The position numbers and the translations under genes were made by a program. From an uncultured bacterium (lineage in GTDB: Bacteria > Patescibacteriota > Minisyncoccia > UBA6257 > 2-01-FULL-56-20), in contig CAWDZM010000001.1 of the NCBI GenBank assembly GCA_963807165.1, forward strand, positions 417,521-481,520: DNA of 64,000 nt, read 5' to 3'. Positions 51,095 through 58,375 of the stretch are shown here, one piece after another (position 1 is the first letter of the stretch; each line of letters begins with the position of its first letter). The notes below the pieces were generated by a model that was given only the letters and a program-made list of their open reading frames with translations, had not been told where the DNA came from and made no database searches.

Positions 51095-52234
51095 CTAGAA
51101 CTTCGTCGTTTGCGGGCTTCCCAACCCCGTCACGTAATCGTATCGCTTGCGCGCATCGCAGTAATACTGGCAGGTGCCGTTCGATCCGCTCGTGATATCA
51201 CGGAAGTACTTGAGCGTGCTCGTGGAAGCCTTGTCAGTGTAGAACTTATCAAGCGCGGCGGTATCGCCAAGCGCCTGGATGGCGGCCCACTGCGGAGCGC
51301 CTGCGCTCGTACCGCCGACGGTGTCCCACGCACCTTTTTTCTTTGTACCGGTGCCCGTGGTGATATAGATAGGGTATCCAGACGCGGGATCTGCATTGTA
51401 GGAGACATCCGGAATCGCACGCATGCCGTTCGCCTTCGAGATCTTGTACGACGTCTGGTATGCGGGCTCTTTTTCATATGCACTCACACCACCACCACTT
51501 CCCGACCATGCGCTCTCAGCAATCAGCGTGCCGCTCGATGCCAACTGCAACGACGTGCCACCGACGCCGATCACATTCGGCGAGGACGCGGGCCAGCTGG
51601 CTCCCGTGCCATCGTCACCAGATGACGCAAAGAATGCGATACTCGAACTCGTCTTGCTTTCAAAATGCGAATCCTCCGAAAGCTCGTCGGAAAATTCCGC
51701 GCCGCCCCAGCTCATCGAAACCGCAACGACATCCTTGCGCGCGGCGGCGTAATCCACGGCGCTCATCAGATTCGCACCGGATGGCGTCTTTGCCTCTACG
51801 AGTAATATCTTTGCGCTCGGCGCGATCGCGTGCGCCCACTCCACGTCGAGCGATGTTTCCATGGCCCAACCGCTGTTCGATGCGGTCGAACTCGCCATTT
51901 TATGTTTTTCGAAACAGCCATTTGCGGTAGTACACGCTGGCAGATTGAACTGTTTATCAAACGCTGCCAGATCACTTTCCATATTCGTGTCATCGTACGC
52001 ATCAATAAGCGCGATCGTCCCCTTTCCGCCAGTGGCAGGAAGGTTATAGATCTTTTTTATTTCCGCCGGTGTCACGCCGGAAGGCGTCGTTTGTGCCGAC
52101 TTGAATACGTGCACCGGCGGCGTCCCCTGAAAATCCGAAAACCGATACGCCGCCTGTGCGGCACCCACGGGAACAAGCGCGGAAGCGGCCGCGAGGAACG
52201 CGACAAGCACCGCAGATAGTTTTTTTGTTTTCAT
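51095..52234 (-). CDS. Secreted S53 (sedolisin-family) serine peptidase.
   Basis: It has a signal peptide, a pro-domain and the catalytic Ser in GGTSAGAPQWAAIQAL. Confidence 0.75.
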   Translation of the reverse strand: MKTKKLSAVLVAFLAAASALVPVGAAQAAYRFSDFQGTPPVHVFKSAQTTPSGVTPAEIKKIYNLPATGGKGTIALIDAYDDTNMESDLAAFDKQFNLPACTTANGCFEKHKMASSTASNSGWAMETSLDVEWAHAIAPSAKILLVEAKTPSGANLMSAVDYAAARKDVVAVSMSWGGAEFSDELSEDSHFESKTSSSIAFFASSGDDGTGASWPASSPNVIGVGGTSLQLASSGTLIAESAWSGSGGGVSAYEKEPAYQTSYKISKANGMRAIPDVSYNADPASGYPIYITTGTGTKKKGAWDTVGGTSAGAPQWAAIQALGDTAALDKFYTDKASTSTLKYFRDITSGSNGTCQYYCDARKRYDYVTGLGSPQTTKF

Positions 52235-52371: not shown

Positions 52372-54303
52372 CTACCAAATCTTTACACGATCACTATCCT
52401 CGCGATACAGCTTTTCGCCCGGCTTTACGTCAAATGCCTTATAAAATTCCAGCATATTGGAAAGCGAGCCATTCACGCGATACACACCGGGAGAGTGCGG
52501 ATCTGTTTGTATCCGCACTCGTAATGCTTCATCGCGAAGATTTTCACATTCTGTCACGGCGTAACTCGAAAAAAATCTTTGTGCTATAGCTTTATTGGCT
52601 TCCATCGCTACATCACCGCCAAGCGCTAATACCAAGCCATCATACGCGATAAGGAGACCCCCCAAATCAGCGATATTCTCACCCAGCGTAAGCTTTCCGT
52701 TCACATGCAAGCCGGGTAACGGCTCATAGGCGTCGAATTGTTCTGCGAGATGTGCGGTTTGTTTATCAAAACGCCCCTTGTCTTCATCAGTCCACCAATT
52801 TTGCAGATTGCCATGAGCGTCGAAGAGAGCACCCTTATCATCAAATCCATGGGTGAGTTCATGGCCAATGGTCGCACCGATGCCACCGAAATTAGTGGCA
52901 TCATCCGCAGCCGGGTCAAAAAATGGTGGTTGCAAGATCGCCGCAGGGAAAAGTATCTCGTTCATAGTGGGCGAATAACACGCGTTCACCACCTGCGGCA
53001 TCATATACCATTCCGTCCGATCCACCGGCTTCCCGATCTTTCTCATTTGCCGGTCGAATTCATCTATATGAGCTGCCAGATAATTCTGCAGATAGGAATC
53101 GGTGGCGATCGTAAGCGTAGTAATATCTTTCCACTTATCAGGATACCCTAATTTCCTGGCTATGTTCTCAAGTTTCGCGATCGCCTTTTGCTTGGTTTCA
53201 GGACTCATCCAATCCAACTTCTCGATACGCGTTCTATATGCCGCAGTAAGATGATCAACGAGTGTATTTATTTTGGCTTTCGCGCTCTCGCTGAAATGTT
53301 TTTCGACGTAGAGCTGACCCACTGCCTCATCGAGCATGGCATTGACCACACCAAGCACCCTCCGCCAGCGTGGCTTCATCTCTGTTGCGCCGCCGAACGT
53401 ACGCCCATAGAAATCAAACCATGCCCCCTCAAAATCCTCGCTCAAAAAATTAGCAAACCCGTTCAATACGTGCCATCGCAGATATGCCTTGATGTCATCT
53501 ATCGAACATTCCTCGAAAATAGCGTTAACTTCCTTTATAAATTCCGGTTGAAGCACAATTATGTATTCGGGAATCGGCACCTGCATACCCTCGAGATACT
53601 TTACCCAATCCACGCGCGGCGCAATCGCCGAAAGCTCAGCGAGCGTCATCTTGTGATATTGCTTTTCAATGTCACGCAATTCCACATGCGTCATTGATGC
53701 GCGGGCAAGGCGCACTTCGATGTCAACAAATTGCCGTGACACCGGTCGATATCCGACAATAACTGCCGAGAGCGCAAGCATTCCTTCTGTGTAGGATGTA
53801 TACTTCACGCGAATATCGCGACTTTTTTCATCATCGTTCAGATAATAATCTCTATCGGGCAAGCTCAAGCCATTTTGACCAAGATACAATACTATCGCTT
53901 CACTATTCTTCATATCTTGGTCAGCCATAGGTGCCCAGAAGGCACCTACTCCTCGCCGGTGCAAATATCCCAGCAATGCCCCGAGTCCTGCAATGTCGGA
54001 GGCTCCGTCAATCATGGCAAAAATATCTTTCAATGGGGCATCCTTTAAAGTATTCACTTTTTCAACATCCATGCCGGTCTGATAAAAATCTCGTACTTTT
54101 CTGGCATTTTCATCCAACACGATGCCAGGGGTATGATCCGTCTCCGTGATCCCATCAAAGATCTCCTTCAGCTGCTTTTCGACTTCGACCCGAAGTATAT
54201 TGAACGACCCCCATCGCGATTCTTCGGGCGGGATAGGATTCTCTTCGATCCACGTGCCGTTTACAAAATGAAAGAAATCATCCCCGGGTTTCATAGTAAT
54301 CAT
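52372..54303 (-). CDS. M13-family zinc metalloendopeptidase (PepO/neprilysin-like).
   Basis: The HELTHGFDD zinc motif and GENIADLGGL are present. The protein is 643 aa. Confidence 0.9.
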   Translation of the reverse strand: MITMKPGDDFFHFVNGTWIEENPIPPEESRWGSFNILRVEVEKQLKEIFDGITETDHTPGIVLDENARKVRDFYQTGMDVEKVNTLKDAPLKDIFAMIDGASDIAGLGALLGYLHRRGVGAFWAPMADQDMKNSEAIVLYLGQNGLSLPDRDYYLNDDEKSRDIRVKYTSYTEGMLALSAVIVGYRPVSRQFVDIEVRLARASMTHVELRDIEKQYHKMTLAELSAIAPRVDWVKYLEGMQVPIPEYIIVLQPEFIKEVNAIFEECSIDDIKAYLRWHVLNGFANFLSEDFEGAWFDFYGRTFGGATEMKPRWRRVLGVVNAMLDEAVGQLYVEKHFSESAKAKINTLVDHLTAAYRTRIEKLDWMSPETKQKAIAKLENIARKLGYPDKWKDITTLTIATDSYLQNYLAAHIDEFDRQMRKIGKPVDRTEWYMMPQVVNACYSPTMNEILFPAAILQPPFFDPAADDATNFGGIGATIGHELTHGFDDKGALFDAHGNLQNWWTDEDKGRFDKQTAHLAEQFDAYEPLPGLHVNGKLTLGENIADLGGLLIAYDGLVLALGGDVAMEANKAIAQRFFSSYAVTECENLRDEALRVRIQTDPHSPGVYRVNGSLSNMLEFYKAFDVKPGEKLYREDSDRVKIW

Positions 54304-54397
54304 AGTTATCCCATTATAGGGTAAAATATCCGGATACCAAAGCCATTGGCAAAGTCACATCAAGCGCGGTATACTCTTAGAAATAAAACTATTTATC

Positions 54398-54916
54398 ATG
54401 AAAAAATACATCATCGCAGGAGTGCTCGTGGTCGCGTTTGTCGCGTATCTTCTGTTTGCCAATAAAAACTCTACGCAGGTGGCAGCAGTAACGCCGCAAG
54501 GATCGCCCAGCACCACCGGGCCAACATCACTCCCGCCCACCAGCACCACGAGCGGCGCGGGGAATAACCCCCCAGCGAGCGACACTAGCAGCGGTGGCAC
54601 AACGACCACCCCACCAATAACAAAGCCGGCTGGCCAATATAAAGATGGCACCTATACCGGCACAGTCGCCGATGCGTTCTATGGAAACCTCCAGGCAGTC
54701 GCCGTCATCCAGGGCGGTGCGCTGGTAGATGTGAAATTCCCGCAGGCTCCGAGTGGCGGACACTCAAGCGACGTCAGCGCCGCGGCGTTGCCGGCACTCA
54801 GACAGGAGGCGATTGCCGCGCAAAGCGCGAACGTCAACATCGTTTCCGGTGCCACGCAGGACAGCCAGGCCTTCCAGCAATCACTCGGTTCAGCACTCGC
54901 CCAAGCAAAGAGCTAA
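54398..54916 (+). CDS. Exported FMN-binding domain protein.
   Basis: It has a signal anchor and a Thr/Pro-rich linker. The FMN_bind-like segment is YKDGTYTGTVADAFYGNLQAVAV...GATQDSQAFQQSL. Confidence 0.7.
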   Translation: MKKYIIAGVLVVAFVAYLLFANKNSTQVAAVTPQGSPSTTGPTSLPPTSTTSGAGNNPPASDTSSGGTTTTPPITKPAGQYKDGTYTGTVADAFYGNLQAVAVIQGGALVDVKFPQAPSGGHSSDVSAAALPALRQEAIAAQSANVNIVSGATQDSQAFQQSLGSALAQAKS

Positions 54917-55662
54917 TGAAACAAACGCGGTTTATGATGGGAATGCCCATCACCGTCGAAATTATTGATCCGCGCACAACGGAGGAAATTTTTAATGAAG
55001 TTTTTAACTATTTCGCGCATATAGATGAAACATTCAGCACCTATAAGCCAGCAAGTGAGATAAGCGCGATCAATAACGGATCGCTCGCGCCCGGCGACGC
55101 GAGCGAAGAGATGCAACTTGTCCTCGCGATGTGTGAGGAAACAAAGCGCGAGACGAACGGCTACTTTGACATTAAAACTCCGGCTGGAAAGATCGATCCA
55201 TCCGGAATCGTAAAAGGCTGGGCGATCTGGAACGCGGCGAAGTTGCTTGAAAAGAATGGTTTTGAAAATTTTTATATTGATGCGGGCGGCGACATCCAAC
55301 CGCATGGCCATAATGCGGATGGCAAACGATGGGCGATCGGCATAAAAAATCCCTTCAATGAATTTGAGAATGTGAAAGTGATATATGCGAGCGAGGAAGG
55401 CGTTGCCACCTCCGGCACATACATTCGCGGATTGCATATCTATAATCCACGCGCAGGAAACGAACCGGTCAGCGGCATTATAAGCCTTACCGTAATTGGC
55501 CCGAATATCCACGATGCCGATCGCTTCGCCACCGCCGCGTTCGCCATGGGCGCAGATGGCATCAATTTTATCGAACAGCTCCCCGGCTACGAAGGATATA
55601 GAATAGATAAGAATAAGGTCGCGACCATGACGACGGAATTCGAAAAATATACCATCGCATAA
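54916..55662 (+). CDS. apbE: FAD:protein FMN transferase ApbE.
   Basis: ApbE family features are MGMPITVEI, DIKTPAGKIDPSGIVKGWA and GGDIQ. The start overlaps the stop of the upstream gene. Confidence 0.85.
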   Translation: MKQTRFMMGMPITVEIIDPRTTEEIFNEVFNYFAHIDETFSTYKPASEISAINNGSLAPGDASEEMQLVLAMCEETKRETNGYFDIKTPAGKIDPSGIVKGWAIWNAAKLLEKNGFENFYIDAGGDIQPHGHNADGKRWAIGIKNPFNEFENVKVIYASEEGVATSGTYIRGLHIYNPRAGNEPVSGIISLTVIGPNIHDADRFATAAFAMGADGINFIEQLPGYEGYRIDKNKVATMTTEFEKYTIA

Positions 55663-55680
55663 TAGCGAAACAAAAAAAAT

Positions 55681-57186
55681 ATGAACTTCATTGACCGATT
55701 CCTAAACAACATCACGATGTATCGCCTCGTGATGTATTACCTCATAATCCTCCTCGCGATCGCGGCGATCTTTGGTGCAACGGGGATCCTGCCATACAAT
55801 CCGGTCGCTATCATTTTTTCCACGCTCTTCCTACTCATCATCGCCTGGGCGACGAACGGCATTCTCGCAAAATTGATGAGTGCCCAACCGAACACGGAAT
55901 CAGTTTACATTACCGCGCTCATCCTTGCCCTCATCATCACGCCGGGGATGCCGACTGATGTTTCAACGGTCATCTTCCTCGCATGGGCAGCGGTAATCGC
56001 GATGGCATCAAAGTACGTTTTCGCCATCGACAAAAAACATATCTTCAACCCTGCGGCGTTCGCCGTGGCCGTTACCGCGCTTGCGCTCAACCAATCGGCG
56101 AGCTGGTGGATTGGTGGCAATGTGCCGATGATGGCATTCGTGATCGTTGGCGGACTGCTCGTGCTCCGCAAGATCCAGCGCTTTGATCTGGCGCTCACGT
56201 TCTTTGTATTCGCCCTCGCAAGCGACGTTGTAACGCACCTGGCGTTTGATCCGGTCTCGACTATCCAAAAGGCCCTGCTTCACACCCCGCTCTTCTTCTT
56301 TGCCTCAATCATGATCACCGAACCGCTTACCACGCCGCCGACGCGGCGCTGGCGCATGATCTATGGCGCGATCGTCGGCGCGCTCTTCTCCCCCGCCATC
56401 GCCATCGCTGGGATCTCCTCATCTCCCGAGCTTGCGCTCCTCGTCGGTAATATATTTTCGTACATCGTCAGCCCGAAAGGAAAACGCGTGCTCACCCTCA
56501 AAGAAAAACAAACCGTCGGCGCCGACATTCATCATCTCGTCTTTACGACAGATAAGAAGCTAGCATTCCGACCCGGACAATATTTGGAGTGGACGCTTGG
56601 CGGCGGCACTCACAACGCCAGCTCAACCGACGGCCGCGGCAACCGCCGCTACTTCACCATCGCGTCGGCGCCGACGGAAGACACCATCCAACTCGGCATA
56701 AAATCCTATGAGCCATCGAGCAGTTTCAAAAAACAATTGCTTACAATGAAGCCTGGCGATACGATCATCGCGGGACAGCTTGCGGGAGAATTTACTCTGC
56801 CAAAAGATCCAAAACAAAAACTGGCGTTCATCGCGGGCGGCATCGGCATCACGCCGTTCCGTAGCATGGTAAAAGATCTCATCGATCGGGATGAAAAACG
56901 CGATGCGGTACTCTTCTATTCCAATCGCACCGCGAGCGAAGTGGCATACCGCGATATATTTGATGAGGCCGAAAGAAAATTTGGGATGAAAACAATCTAT
57001 ACCATGACCGATGGCGGCGACCGCCTCACGGCCGATATGATCAAAAAAGAAATCTCCGATTACGGGGAGCGTATGTTCTATATTTCCGGCACGCACGCGA
57101 TGACGAACTCGTTCCGGAAAACATTGCGCGAAATGGGCGTCTCTCTCGCGAATATTAAAACGGATTTCTTCCCAGGATTCGCGTAG
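55681..57186 (+). CDS. Polytopic membrane domain (RnfD/NqrB-like) fused to an FAD/NAD(P)-binding ferredoxin-reductase-like domain.
   Basis: About eight transmembrane helices are followed by the FAD-binding RRYFTIASAP segment and the NAD-binding FIAGGIGITPFRSM segment. The motif PTDVSTV is a possible flavinylation site. Confidence 0.75.
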   Translation: MNFIDRFLNNITMYRLVMYYLIILLAIAAIFGATGILPYNPVAIIFSTLFLLIIAWATNGILAKLMSAQPNTESVYITALILALIITPGMPTDVSTVIFLAWAAVIAMASKYVFAIDKKHIFNPAAFAVAVTALALNQSASWWIGGNVPMMAFVIVGGLLVLRKIQRFDLALTFFVFALASDVVTHLAFDPVSTIQKALLHTPLFFFASIMITEPLTTPPTRRWRMIYGAIVGALFSPAIAIAGISSSPELALLVGNIFSYIVSPKGKRVLTLKEKQTVGADIHHLVFTTDKKLAFRPGQYLEWTLGGGTHNASSTDGRGNRRYFTIASAPTEDTIQLGIKSYEPSSSFKKQLLTMKPGDTIIAGQLAGEFTLPKDPKQKLAFIAGGIGITPFRSMVKDLIDRDEKRDAVLFYSNRTASEVAYRDIFDEAERKFGMKTIYTMTDGGDRLTADMIKKEISDYGERMFYISGTHAMTNSFRKTLREMGVSLANIKTDFFPGFA

Positions 57187-57207: not shown

Positions 57208-57753
57208 TTAATTTTCGGCGCCAACTCCCATGGGAGAAGATACTGAATACGAAGGAGTGACCTCTGAGCGAAGAGGAGGAAAAGAGGAGGGAATCACCCA
57301 ATCCCCCAATTCCTTCATAAACTCTTCGCGACGCTCTTCAATGCCAATCTCCTTAAGGTGCCACCGCGGACGACACTCCGGAGTATATTCATAATGACCA
57401 CACACCTCTCCATCCCTAAAAATGCGAATATGATATTGCCGCTCGAAGCTTTCGATCTTCCTTATCCCAATAATTTCCCCTTCTTCCCTCCATGCAATGA
57501 AATTATTTCCCCACCCGCGGGATTCCAGATATTTTAAGAATTCGGCAACATCCCTCCCCGGGGCAAGGGTGCCGAGCGTATAGTTGTGCCTGCTTTCATG
57601 ATGGAGTACCCCGACGTTCAACAAAAAGTCCCGCCCGTGATTATGAAAAGGGGTAATCAGCCTCCAGAACACATATTTCGACCGGTTATTTATCCCTTTT
57701 GGATACGGTAAGACCGAGTCAGGGATACTCCGCCTAAGGGCTATTTCGTCCAT
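57208..57753 (-). CDS. Hypothetical protein of 181 aa.
   Basis: It is His-rich (HHESRH, YHIRIF, HYEYTP). No family could be assigned. It lies downstream of the 2H phosphoesterase gene. Confidence 0.4.
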   Translation of the reverse strand: MDEIALRRSIPDSVLPYPKGINNRSKYVFWRLITPFHNHGRDFLLNVGVLHHESRHNYTLGTLAPGRDVAEFLKYLESRGWGNNFIAWREEGEIIGIRKIESFERQYHIRIFRDGEVCGHYEYTPECRPRWHLKEIGIEERREEFMKELGDWVIPSSFPPLRSEVTPSYSVSSPMGVGAEN

Positions 57754-57838: not shown

Positions 57839-58375
57839 TTAGCCGCTCAATTGGCATTCTCCAACCTTAACCCAGCTATCTGCCTCCCCCTCTGTTCGGT
57901 ATAAGAACACCTTATCTACGATGAATTTCATAGGGACTGGGAGCGACAACGATGCGATCGCTTCATTTTTATGAACGTATAAAGAACTCCCGTAGTACAG
58001 GCTTAGATGGGGAAAATAAATATTTACGTCCTGAATCCCAAAGATATTCAGCGCTTCCTGATGATAGCTTTTTAATTCGGGGCTGTACTCCGTCTTGCAG
58101 TACAGAGCACGAAAGTAAGCCTCTTCCGCACAAATGGTTTTCGGCTCGATTTCGAACGGCCTCATCATACCCGCAAGTTTTCGGGTTTTGATCATCAACT
58201 CTTCCTCCCCTGCCTTCGGGATCCTCGCTAATAAGGTGACGTGGGGTTCAAGCTTTATGCCGTCATACCGCTCGGCGAGGGTATCTATGATATCCTGCAA
58301 CTCGGTAAAAAGCTTTTTGGGCGGCAGGAAAAATAAATGATATCCGACGGTTTTACTGTCCTTGGGATCGAACAT
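57839..58375 (-). CDS. 2H-phosphoesterase superfamily protein (LigT/ThpR-like).
   Basis: Two H-x-T/S-x motifs are present: HVTL and HLSL. Confidence 0.7.
   Translation of the reverse strand: MFDPKDSKTVGYHLFFLPPKKLFTELQDIIDTLAERYDGIKLEPHVTLLARIPKAGEEELMIKTRKLAGMMRPFEIEPKTICAEEAYFRALYCKTEYSPELKSYHQEALNIFGIQDVNIYFPHLSLYYGSSLYVHKNEAIASLSLPVPMKFIVDKVFLYRTEGEADSWVKVGECQLSG

Follow-up and report, generated by a model that had tools for sequence, protein, structure and literature searches.

The question raised by this locus is whether a bacterium of the candidate phyla radiation (CPR) encodes, within three genes, a complete route for electrons from cytoplasmic NAD(P)H to a flavoprotein outside the membrane. 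The locus lies in a stretch of 64,000 nucleotides (the window) from contig CAWDZM010000001.1 (assembly GCA_963807165.1, positions 417,521 to 481,520 of the forward strand) of an uncultured bacterium of the Minisyncoccia (Patescibacteriota). It comprises three open reading frames (ORFs) on the same strand at positions 54398–57186, designated here P1, P2 and P3. An earlier reading of the DNA letters alone, called below the sequence-only reading, had described them as a flavin module consisting of an exported protein that binds flavin mononucleotide (FMN), the flavin transferase ApbE, and an RnfD-like membrane domain fused to a reductase of the ferredoxin reductase (FNR) type. All three genes were found tightly packed at these positions. 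The probable products of the operon are an all-flavin transmembrane NAD(P)H:acceptor oxidoreductase of two subunits (P1 and P3) and the enzyme that matures it (P2). The operon belongs to the NQR/RNF-like flavinylation-associated system, already described computationally in publications of 2021 and 2024.

P1, P2 and P3 form one compact operon. The stop codon of P1 and the start codon of P2 overlap by 1 nt (TAATG), the gap between P2 and P3 is 18 nt, and the gene next downstream of P3 is convergent. The 94-bp divergent intergenic region 5′ of P1 contains a sigma-70-like promoter candidate, which is a consensus match alone, such sites in the region being not above the shuffled expectation. No second copy of ApbE, FMN_bind or P3 was found in the window. 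In a search with the Pfam models, ApbE, PF03116 and PF00175 were matched, and the FMN_bind domain of P1 alone remained below the threshold, its assignment being supported by the family profile described below.

A scan of species-representative genomes, one per species, gave at least 599 matching stretches, at least 511 of which encode a relative; the 80 best are referred to as the related loci. Most are labelled Patescibacteria or CPR, several carrying generic names or other class labels only, and the lineages named are Paceibacteria, Kaiser-, Adler-, Yanofsky-, Azam-, Doudna-, Magasanik- and Daviesbacteria, Peregrinibacteria and Gracilibacteria. The trio, taken as a unit in the sequence-only reading, proved to be conserved as such: genes for FMN_bind, ApbE and P3 are contiguous on the same strand in 60 of the 80 related loci. 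In a further 13 loci FMN_bind is located directly 5′ of P3, with ApbE elsewhere or beyond the fetched flank. ApbE is present and FMN_bind was not detected in three loci; the same arrangement in two others is accompanied by a contig end upstream, with FMN_bind not found. In one locus all three genes are present but P3 follows only after about 870 nt, and in one neither partner was detected. In one metagenome-assembled genome, BP9.bin97, one locus (L021) has ApbE and the other (L073) only FMN_bind and P3, which suggests that a single ApbE serves both modules. Two paralogous modules also share one metagenome-assembled genome in OBJ_0618_7090110_215 (L039 and L052).

The fusion that defines P3 is likewise widespread. 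The search for P3 homologues returned thousands of matches at E ≤ 1e-5, among them a protein identical to P3. The 120 best were all full-length (58–100% identity), and some of their source names were Paceibacterota, Minisyncoccia and Pacebacteria. With a profile of the membrane domain, 543 clusters (50% identity) were matched at E ≤ 1e-30, most of them 490–510 amino acids in length. The fusion is intact across the listed homologues and loci at 51–84% identity, and an alignment of 23 homologues showed many invariant columns in both domains.

The N-terminal half of P3 matched the Pfam family NQR2_RnfD_RnfE (PF03116) over residues 146–262 with 40.2 bits (cut-off 27.7). A single-sequence phmmer search of this half against the Protein Data Bank (PDB) gave no matches, so that a family profile was needed; with it, the only PDB matches were RnfD chains (8ahx_D, E = 0.0075). 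An hhalign comparison of the P3 family with Escherichia coli RsxD gave 89% probability over 106 columns, and paired ITEPLTTPPTR of P3 with LTDPVTASTTNR of RsxD. Because the FNR half dominated the Foldseek results for the full-length model, the membrane domain was modelled separately. The AlphaFold2 model of residues 1–268 (pLDDT 85.9, pTM 0.84) had RnfD or NqrB chains as all of its 15 best Foldseek matches in the PDB (E 2e-6 to 4e-4). The best was Acetobacterium woodii RnfD (9eri_D, TM score 0.73), and the others included RnfD of Azotobacter vinelandii and of Clostridium tetanomorphum and NqrB of Vibrio cholerae (TM score about 0.6). The matches that followed were urea transporters, with E > 0.1. 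As judged from the agreement of Pfam, profile, hhalign and structural comparisons, the membrane half of P3 is truly homologous to RnfD/NqrB rather than a mere anchor for the reductase.

The sequence-only reading had also drawn attention to the string PTDVSTV of P3 and likened it to the covalent FMN attachment sites of RnfD and NqrB. The string is present, at residues 91–97, but its interpretation as an attachment site was rejected. In the alignment of the 23 homologues (60–84% identity) no other stretch of P3 is as poorly conserved or as prone to indels as these residues, and the variants at this position include PT-DVSTV, PN-NAATV, PL-SQNYI and PSGIIADMAGL. When E. coli RsxD was added to the family alignment with mafft, PTDVSTV aligned with PPLAPWW of RsxD (residues ~90–97), away from the RsxD motif SQAT187PL. 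The latter is located in a segment of about 75 residues (roughly RsxD 145–225) that is missing from P3, where W143-IGGNV-P149 connects the flanking helices directly. We take the RsxD motif to correspond, in position and in sequence, to Thr187 of V. cholerae RnfD, reportedly found to be flavinylated by Backiel and co-workers in 2008. No conserved motif of the S/T-G-A-T type was found in the membrane half in the family alignment. With the Thr187 loop absent, the membrane domain has no equivalent of the covalent FMN site, in agreement with Huang et al. (2024, PMC10979944), who report that the flavinylation site of the NqrB/RnfD-like subunit of the NQR/RNF-like system is not conserved.

The C-terminal half of P3 is the reductase half proposed for it, a module that binds flavin adenine dinucleotide (FAD) and NAD(P)H. 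Both diagnostic strings named in the sequence-only reading, RRYFTIASAP and GGIGITPF, are present, and NAD_binding_1 (PF00175) was matched at residues 383–479 with 46.5 bits (cut-off 22), together with a weak match to FAD_binding_6. In searches of NCBIfam and of PDB sequences this half grouped with flavohemoglobin, Fre, NqrF and FNR, and the full-length model matched the FAD/NAD domains of flavohemoglobins, NqrF and SpNOX in Foldseek. The nqrF model TIGR01941 covers only residues 327–434 of P3, with 44.8 bits against a cut-off of 295.

P1 consists of the residues MKK, a transmembrane helix (residues 4–21), a linker of 57 residues rich in Pro, Thr, Ser and Gly, and an FMN_bind domain at residues ~79–172. 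Aligned P1 homologues of the related loci share this plan: Met-Lys-Lys, a hydrophobic helix of about 18–20 residues, a linker, and an FMN_bind domain of about 94 residues. Against Pfam FMN_bind (PF04205) the window P1 scored 15.6 bits, the cut-off being 22. Seventy-three of the 75 members of the P1 family matched the same model at E ≤ 2.5e-4, and the window copy, one of the two exceptions, is an outlier within its family. The same 73 matches ruled out sub-threshold Pfam scores as the reason why CPR bacteria look poor in flavinylation systems. The family profile of the P1 domain matched the solved FMN-binding domain 8P2A with E = 1.6e-24 and with the SGAT motifs aligned. This structure is domain 2 of SaFMN3 of Streptomyces azureus, an extracellular membrane-anchored protein; the domain was flavinylated by ApbE experimentally, has a midpoint potential of −184 mV, and the FMN domain reacts with O2 when reduced (PMC10339131).

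A conserved Ser/Thr suitable for flavinylation was found in the P1 family. The motif V(D/N)xVSGA(T/S) occurs in all 75 sequences, with Ser150, Gly151 and Ala152 invariant and position 153 occupied by Thr in at least 90% and by Ser otherwise. Thr153 is thus the predicted residue for attachment of FMN through a phosphoester. The net charge around the transmembrane helix is +1.84 on the N-terminal and −0.03 on the C-terminal side, and it is higher on the N-terminal side in 70 of 73 homologues. By the positive-inside rule this bias predicts an N-in/C-out topology with the FMN domain tethered outside the membrane, in keeping, together with the fold indicated by 8P2A, with the exported FMN-binding protein first proposed. 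The N-terminal segment would be a signal anchor or an uncleaved signal. The tether is rich in Pro, Thr, Ser, Gly and Ala and ranges from 22 to 136 residues across the homologues (median 59), a variability more in keeping with a domain that reaches flexibly through the envelope than with docking in a fixed geometry.

P2 matched the Pfam family ApbE (PF02424) with E = 3e-43, as well as 13 solved ApbE, Ftp and FmnB sequences (best E = 4e-17), and the assignment of an ApbE gene between those for the FMN-binding and the membrane protein was thus confirmed. In an alignment with the Listeria FmnB chain (7ESA), residue 3 of P2 pairs with residue 24, near the N-terminus of FmnB. P2 has an internal deletion of about 45 residues and is about 80 residues shorter than the solved ApbEs. 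Canonical bacterial ApbEs are exported lipoproteins. All 68 aligned ApbE homologues of the related loci start at the catalytic domain, with MK(E/Q)TR.LMGMP.TVEI, and no signal peptide, lipobox or transmembrane segment was found in these 68 proteins or in two plasmid-encoded examples described below. This feature had escaped the sequence-only reading, in which the role of flavin transferase was otherwise aptly assigned. A hidden ApbE leader, a P1–ApbE fusion and a frameshift were all rejected: the in-frame sequence upstream is Arg-rich, consists of P1 coding sequence read out of frame, and contains no hydrophobic segment. Nor is the spacing between P1 and ApbE constant: in some loci the ORF calls overlap, and in others the two genes are separated by up to tens of nucleotides. 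Cytosolic ApbEs with cytoplasmic substrates are known in Klebsiella pneumoniae, so a leaderless P2 is still compatible with the ApbE enzyme family. With the P1 domain predicted outside, however, the maturation step does not fit the canonical model of an extracytoplasmic ApbE. The main texts of the two reports on the NQR/RNF-like system (PMC8238504, PMC10979944) contain no mention of a leaderless ApbE.

The NQR/RNF-like system is defined by a fusion of PF03116 and PF00175 in a flavinylation gene cluster, no more than five genes from an ApbE (PF02424) or FMN_bind (PF04205) gene, and was reported mainly from Actinobacteria and CPR, in 127 clusters (Méheust et al. 2021, eLife, PMC8238504). P3 contains both domains, the ApbE gene lies 18 nt upstream with FMN_bind next to it, and the flavinylation site is lost. 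Huang et al. (2024, PMC10979944) modelled the pair of subunits from Ktedonobacter racemifer by AlphaFold-Multimer, with the NqrC/RnfG-like subunit docked on the NqrB/RnfD-like subunit and its covalent FMN placed at the flavin site. The architecture, the CPR distribution, the loss of the NqrB/RnfD flavinylation site and the proposed one-way flow from NAD(P)H to the outside are the same in the published system and here, and there is no difference in kind. The path from NAD(P)H through FAD and the membrane to an extracytoplasmic FMN protein, as outlined in the sequence-only reading, coincides with the published proposal (PMC8238504, PMC10979944). The arrangement is already the operational definition of the NQR/RNF-like system, and the reading had therefore re-derived a published hypothesis; the arrangement is not new. 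Added to the known picture are the outright deletion of the loop of about 75 residues, the leaderless ApbE, the tether of 22–136 residues and the at least 511 relative-encoding stretches; that this count exceeds the 127 published clusters more likely reflects a larger genome collection. No experimental study of the NQR/RNF-like system turned up in the literature.

With canonical Rnf complexes the operon has in common the fold of the P3 membrane domain and the FNPA motif, the motif TEPLTTPPTR (TDPVTSP in RnfD), and a membrane-anchored FMN_bind protein, P1, resembling RnfG; in both, ApbE matures the flavoprotein. It differs in the absence of RnfA, RnfB, RnfC, RnfE, Fe–S clusters and ferredoxin coupling, in the deletion of the RnfD site of the Thr187 type, and in the fusion of the FNR module to the membrane domain, and electrons are expected to move one way instead of along a semicircular path. 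Neighbours resembling RnfA, B, C or E were absent from the window and from the 80 related loci. The parts that match Na+-NQR are an NqrF-like FAD/NADH module, an NqrB-like membrane domain and an NqrC-like subunit with covalent FMN. Two subunits are present here against six in Na+-NQR, without the NqrD/E iron centre, the 2Fe–2S domain of the reductase or the Thr236-type site of NqrB, and there is no evidence of a quinone site; the other Nqr subunits were absent, and no ferredoxin-type domain was found on P3.

The flavin-based extracellular electron transfer (EET) of Listeria monocytogenes, with EetA/B and FmnA among its components besides those named below, follows a shared logic, from cytoplasmic NADH through an ApbE-flavinylated FMN_bind protein at the surface to an external acceptor, and in both cases the cell has a Gram-positive-like envelope. 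Listeria, however, crosses the membrane by means of the type II NADH dehydrogenase Ndh2 and a demethylmenaquinone pool (DmkA/B). Listeria further has PplA, a lipoprotein of two domains, and as its ApbE the exported lipoprotein FmnB, which receives FAD from an energy-coupling factor (ECF) transporter. None of these is found here: the PplA model scored 13.7 bits against a cut-off of 325, and the operon has no Ndh2- or Eet-like neighbours. Fusions of the NOX/FRE and MsrQ-like–FNR types, such as Streptococcus pneumoniae SpNOX, combine a polytopic conduit with a C-terminal FNR-like domain that oxidises NAD(P)H, as does P3, but their membrane domain is a di-haem ferric reductase (PF01794), whereas that of P3 has the RnfD fold and presumably binds flavin. 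SaFMN3, the closest solved relative of the P1 FMN domain, shares with P1 an N-terminal anchor and flexible linkers. Multi-flavinylated proteins of its type have three or four FMN domains, in contrast to the one of P1, which is encoded together with a dedicated membrane reductase.

What this analysis established is the identity of the domains, the topology of P1, the presence of the flavinylation motif and the conservation of the operon. Beyond that, the following course of the electrons would be expected. NAD(P)H would reduce the FAD of the cytoplasmic FNR module of P3, as suggested by homology to Nqr and Rnf and by the work of Huang et al. (2024). The electrons would then cross the membrane through a non-covalent flavin in the RnfD-like domain, by analogy with NqrB and RnfD, in which a riboflavin sits close to the cytoplasmic side and an FMN close to the outer side. 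Since P3 has lost its own flavinylated loop, the FMN on Thr153 of P1 would take the outer position in trans, and the P1 domain would undock on its tether and pass the electrons to an acceptor outside the cytoplasm. The operon itself does not encode this acceptor, for which Fe(III), O2, quinone- or humic-like compounds and redox enzymes of the envelope are candidates. Respiratory chains are reported to be missing from CPR bacteria as a group, and in a CPR cell the operon would most plausibly serve to re-oxidise NAD(P)H or to supply the cell surface with reducing power. Several points weigh against this mechanism. No member of the system has been biochemically characterised, and the direction of the electrons, the cofactors that the membrane domain carries and the nature of the acceptor are inferred throughout. 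A conserved fourth gene or acceptor gene was not found in the 80 related loci. Finally, ApbE has no export signal in any homologue, though its substrate domain is predicted to be outside.

Plasmid-borne relatives bear on the role of the module. Plasmid pB2-1-1 of Mesorhizobium sp. B2-1-1 (NZ_CP083955.1) contains an FMN_bind–ApbE–RnfD/FNR trio at positions 3069–7500, with a P3 homologue 48% identical to that of the window and a leaderless ApbE of 240 residues. The trio is divergent from genes for a cytochrome b561 and VIT1 (PF01988), and a PepSY protein and a two-component system are encoded nearby; the proximity of VIT1 and cytochrome b561 fits a reductive extracytoplasmic role. Its presence there also suggests horizontal transfer of the trio between CPR and Proteobacteria. 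In a record labelled uncultured alphaproteobacterium (L078), the P1 domain is very similar to that of the Mesorhizobium trio (L082).

A divergent trio was found at positions 4415–7374 of pDR48-1 from 'Pseudomonas sp. DR48' (NZ_CP081947.1, L083). This 19-kb high-GC record, which also encodes an arginyl-tRNA-synthetase-like ORF, may be mis-assigned and is possibly actinobacterial. The Pfam domain of its ApbE begins at residue 15. In its FMN_bind protein a lipobox is preceded by an RR motif (ALRRTLYAG...VAGC), a combination that resembles, in this single example read by eye, a lipoprotein signal of the twin-arginine translocation (Tat) pathway, and the attachment motif of the protein is VAGSSLTS instead of VSGATxxS. 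Such a signal would fit flavinylation in the cytoplasm followed by export of the folded protein. P1 of CPR and of Mesorhizobium has MKK anchors, and RR occurs in only one of 73 P1 homologues.

The iron-related neighbours in Mesorhizobium raise the possibility of an assimilatory ferric reductase, in which the exported FMN domain would reduce Fe(III) or a ferric chelate for uptake of Fe(II). In agreement with this, VIT1 adjoins 6 of the 127 NQR/RNF-like clusters (PMC8238504), and other flavinylation-associated systems (PepSY-like, MsrQ-like) are tied to iron. However, the VIT1 association is a minority trait, and no iron transporter is linked to the module in the window or in the 80 related loci, so that we regard this function as unlikely. 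The module could also be a minimal redox-driven Na+/H+ pump, the RnfD/NqrB-like domain of the P1–P3 pair having retained ion translocation, since the fold and the conserved TEPLTTPPTR motif are shared with RnfD and NqrB, both of which belong to complexes that pump ions. The potential of NAD(P)H is about −320 mV. The drop from it to the FMN, at about −184 mV in the homologous domain (PMC10339131), could in principle cover the cost of one ion. On the other side, the RnfA/E or NqrD/E subunits and the semicircular electron path thought to drive pumping are both absent, and outward electron transfer alone dissipates the membrane potential; a pump is accordingly judged very unlikely.

The absence of a leader from ApbE in all 68 aligned homologues and both plasmid examples, and the precedent of the cytosolic K. 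pneumoniae enzymes, would be accommodated if the whole system were cytoplasmic, with ApbE flavinylating a P1 that faces the cytoplasm and P3 serving only as a membrane-anchored NAD(P)H:flavoprotein reductase. The charge bias of 70 of the 73 P1 homologues contradicts this, as does the variable tether rich in Pro, Thr and Ser, which is typical of envelope proteins. In addition, the nearest solved domain belongs to an extracellular membrane-anchored protein, the actinobacterial-type homologue carries a lipoprotein signal, and a polytopic domain of the RnfD fold would have no purpose in a purely cytoplasmic system, which makes this arrangement highly improbable. The retention of only RnfD-like and RnfG-like parts and the deletion of the flavinylation loop might also be expected of a decaying, functionless remnant of an Rnf or Nqr operon, an explanation effectively refuted by conservation: the intact fusion, its occurrence in at least 511 stretches and 543 clusters, the invariant columns of both domains and the conserved operon structure leave it next to no probability.

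If the all-flavin transmembrane oxidoreductase is accepted as the probable product of the operon, the maturation of P1 has to be accounted for. We tentatively propose, as possible rather than probable, that ApbE loads FMN onto P1 in the cytoplasm from cytoplasmic FAD and that the flavinylated domain is exported afterwards. Export might use the Tat pathway where an RR-lipoprotein signal is present, as in the one actinobacterial-type example; the MKK-anchored tethered domain of CPR and alphaproteobacterial P1 would need some post-translational export route.

The positions of the features discussed are collected in Table 1.

Table 1. Features of the flavin operon in the window (nucleotide positions of the window; aa, amino acids).
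Feature	Position	Strand	Remarks
Sigma-70-like promoter candidate TTGGCA-18-TATACT	54346–54375	+	Consensus 10/12; upstream of P1
P1, predicted membrane-anchored extracytoplasmic FMN-binding protein	54398–54916	+	172 aa
P1 low-complexity linker	54461–54631	+	P/T/S/G-rich; length variable between species
Predicted SGAT flavinylation motif of P1	54845–54856	+	Thr153 codon 54854–54856
P2, compact leaderless FAD:protein FMN transferase of the ApbE type	54916–55662	+	248 aa
P3, RnfD/NqrB-like membrane domain fused to FNR-like FAD/NAD(P)H reductase	55681–57186	+	501 aa
P3 N-terminal half, polytopic RnfD/NqrB-like membrane domain	55681–56475	+	aa 1–265
PTDVSTV, variable inter-helix loop, not a flavinylation site	55951–55971	+	Family alignment
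Junction W143–P149, periplasmic RnfD/RsxD loop of ~75 aa deleted	56107–56127	+	mafft alignment
P3 C-terminal half, predicted cytoplasmic FNR-like FAD/NAD(P)H reductase module	56482–57186	+	aa 268–501
RRYFTIASAP, FAD motif	56644–56673	+	P3 aa 322–331
GGIGITPF, NAD(P)H motif	56836–56859	+	P3 aa 386–393

The genes noted on either side of the operon lie on the opposite strand. Divergent from it, at 52372–54303 (−), is an M13 metallopeptidase (Peptidase_M13_N and Peptidase_M13), which also occupies the equivalent position in 10 related loci; the window protein begins at the Pfam domain, and the homologue in locus L017 has about 65 extra N-terminal residues. Further upstream, at 51095–52234 (−), a protein of 379 residues has a signal-like segment at its N-terminus and matches nothing in Pfam at E ≤ 1e-3; its segment GGTSAGAPQWAA resembles, as read by eye only, the active-site motif of a serine peptidase. 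Convergent with the operon downstream of P3 are a protein of 181 residues without a Pfam match (57208–57753, −) and a protein of the 2′-5′ RNA ligase/cyclic phosphodiesterase superfamily (57839–58375, −), neither with an evident tie to the flavin module. They are followed, at 58444–61656 (−), by a predicted surface protein of 1070 residues that combines three fibronectin-III domains and NHL/teneurin-like repeats; its C-terminal part matches a peptidoglycan-binding domain weakly, below the threshold. The neighbours that recur in the related loci, each in no more than 15 of the 80, are an M13 peptidase, a sigma-70 factor, ATP-binding cassette (ABC) exporters, GH18, 2-hydroxyacid dehydrogenase and proteins of no known function.

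The operon does not represent a new kind of system, and its value is that of a well-delimited CPR example. The presence of the trio on a plasmid of a cultured Mesorhizobium offers a culturable carrier for a system placed mostly in uncultured CPR. Wherever examined, ApbE is leaderless, which makes the maturation and the export of its substrate domain a puzzle. If flavinylation in the cytoplasm precedes export, the need for an FAD export system would be removed, and this would be an undescribed maturation route for extracytoplasmic ApbE substrates. CPR cells are generally reported to scavenge rather than synthesise cofactors, and if they do so, a route free of FAD export would suit them. In bacteria reported to be without respiratory chains, an all-flavin route to the cell surface driven by NAD(P)H could act as a major redox outlet or as a place where the cell makes contact with a host.

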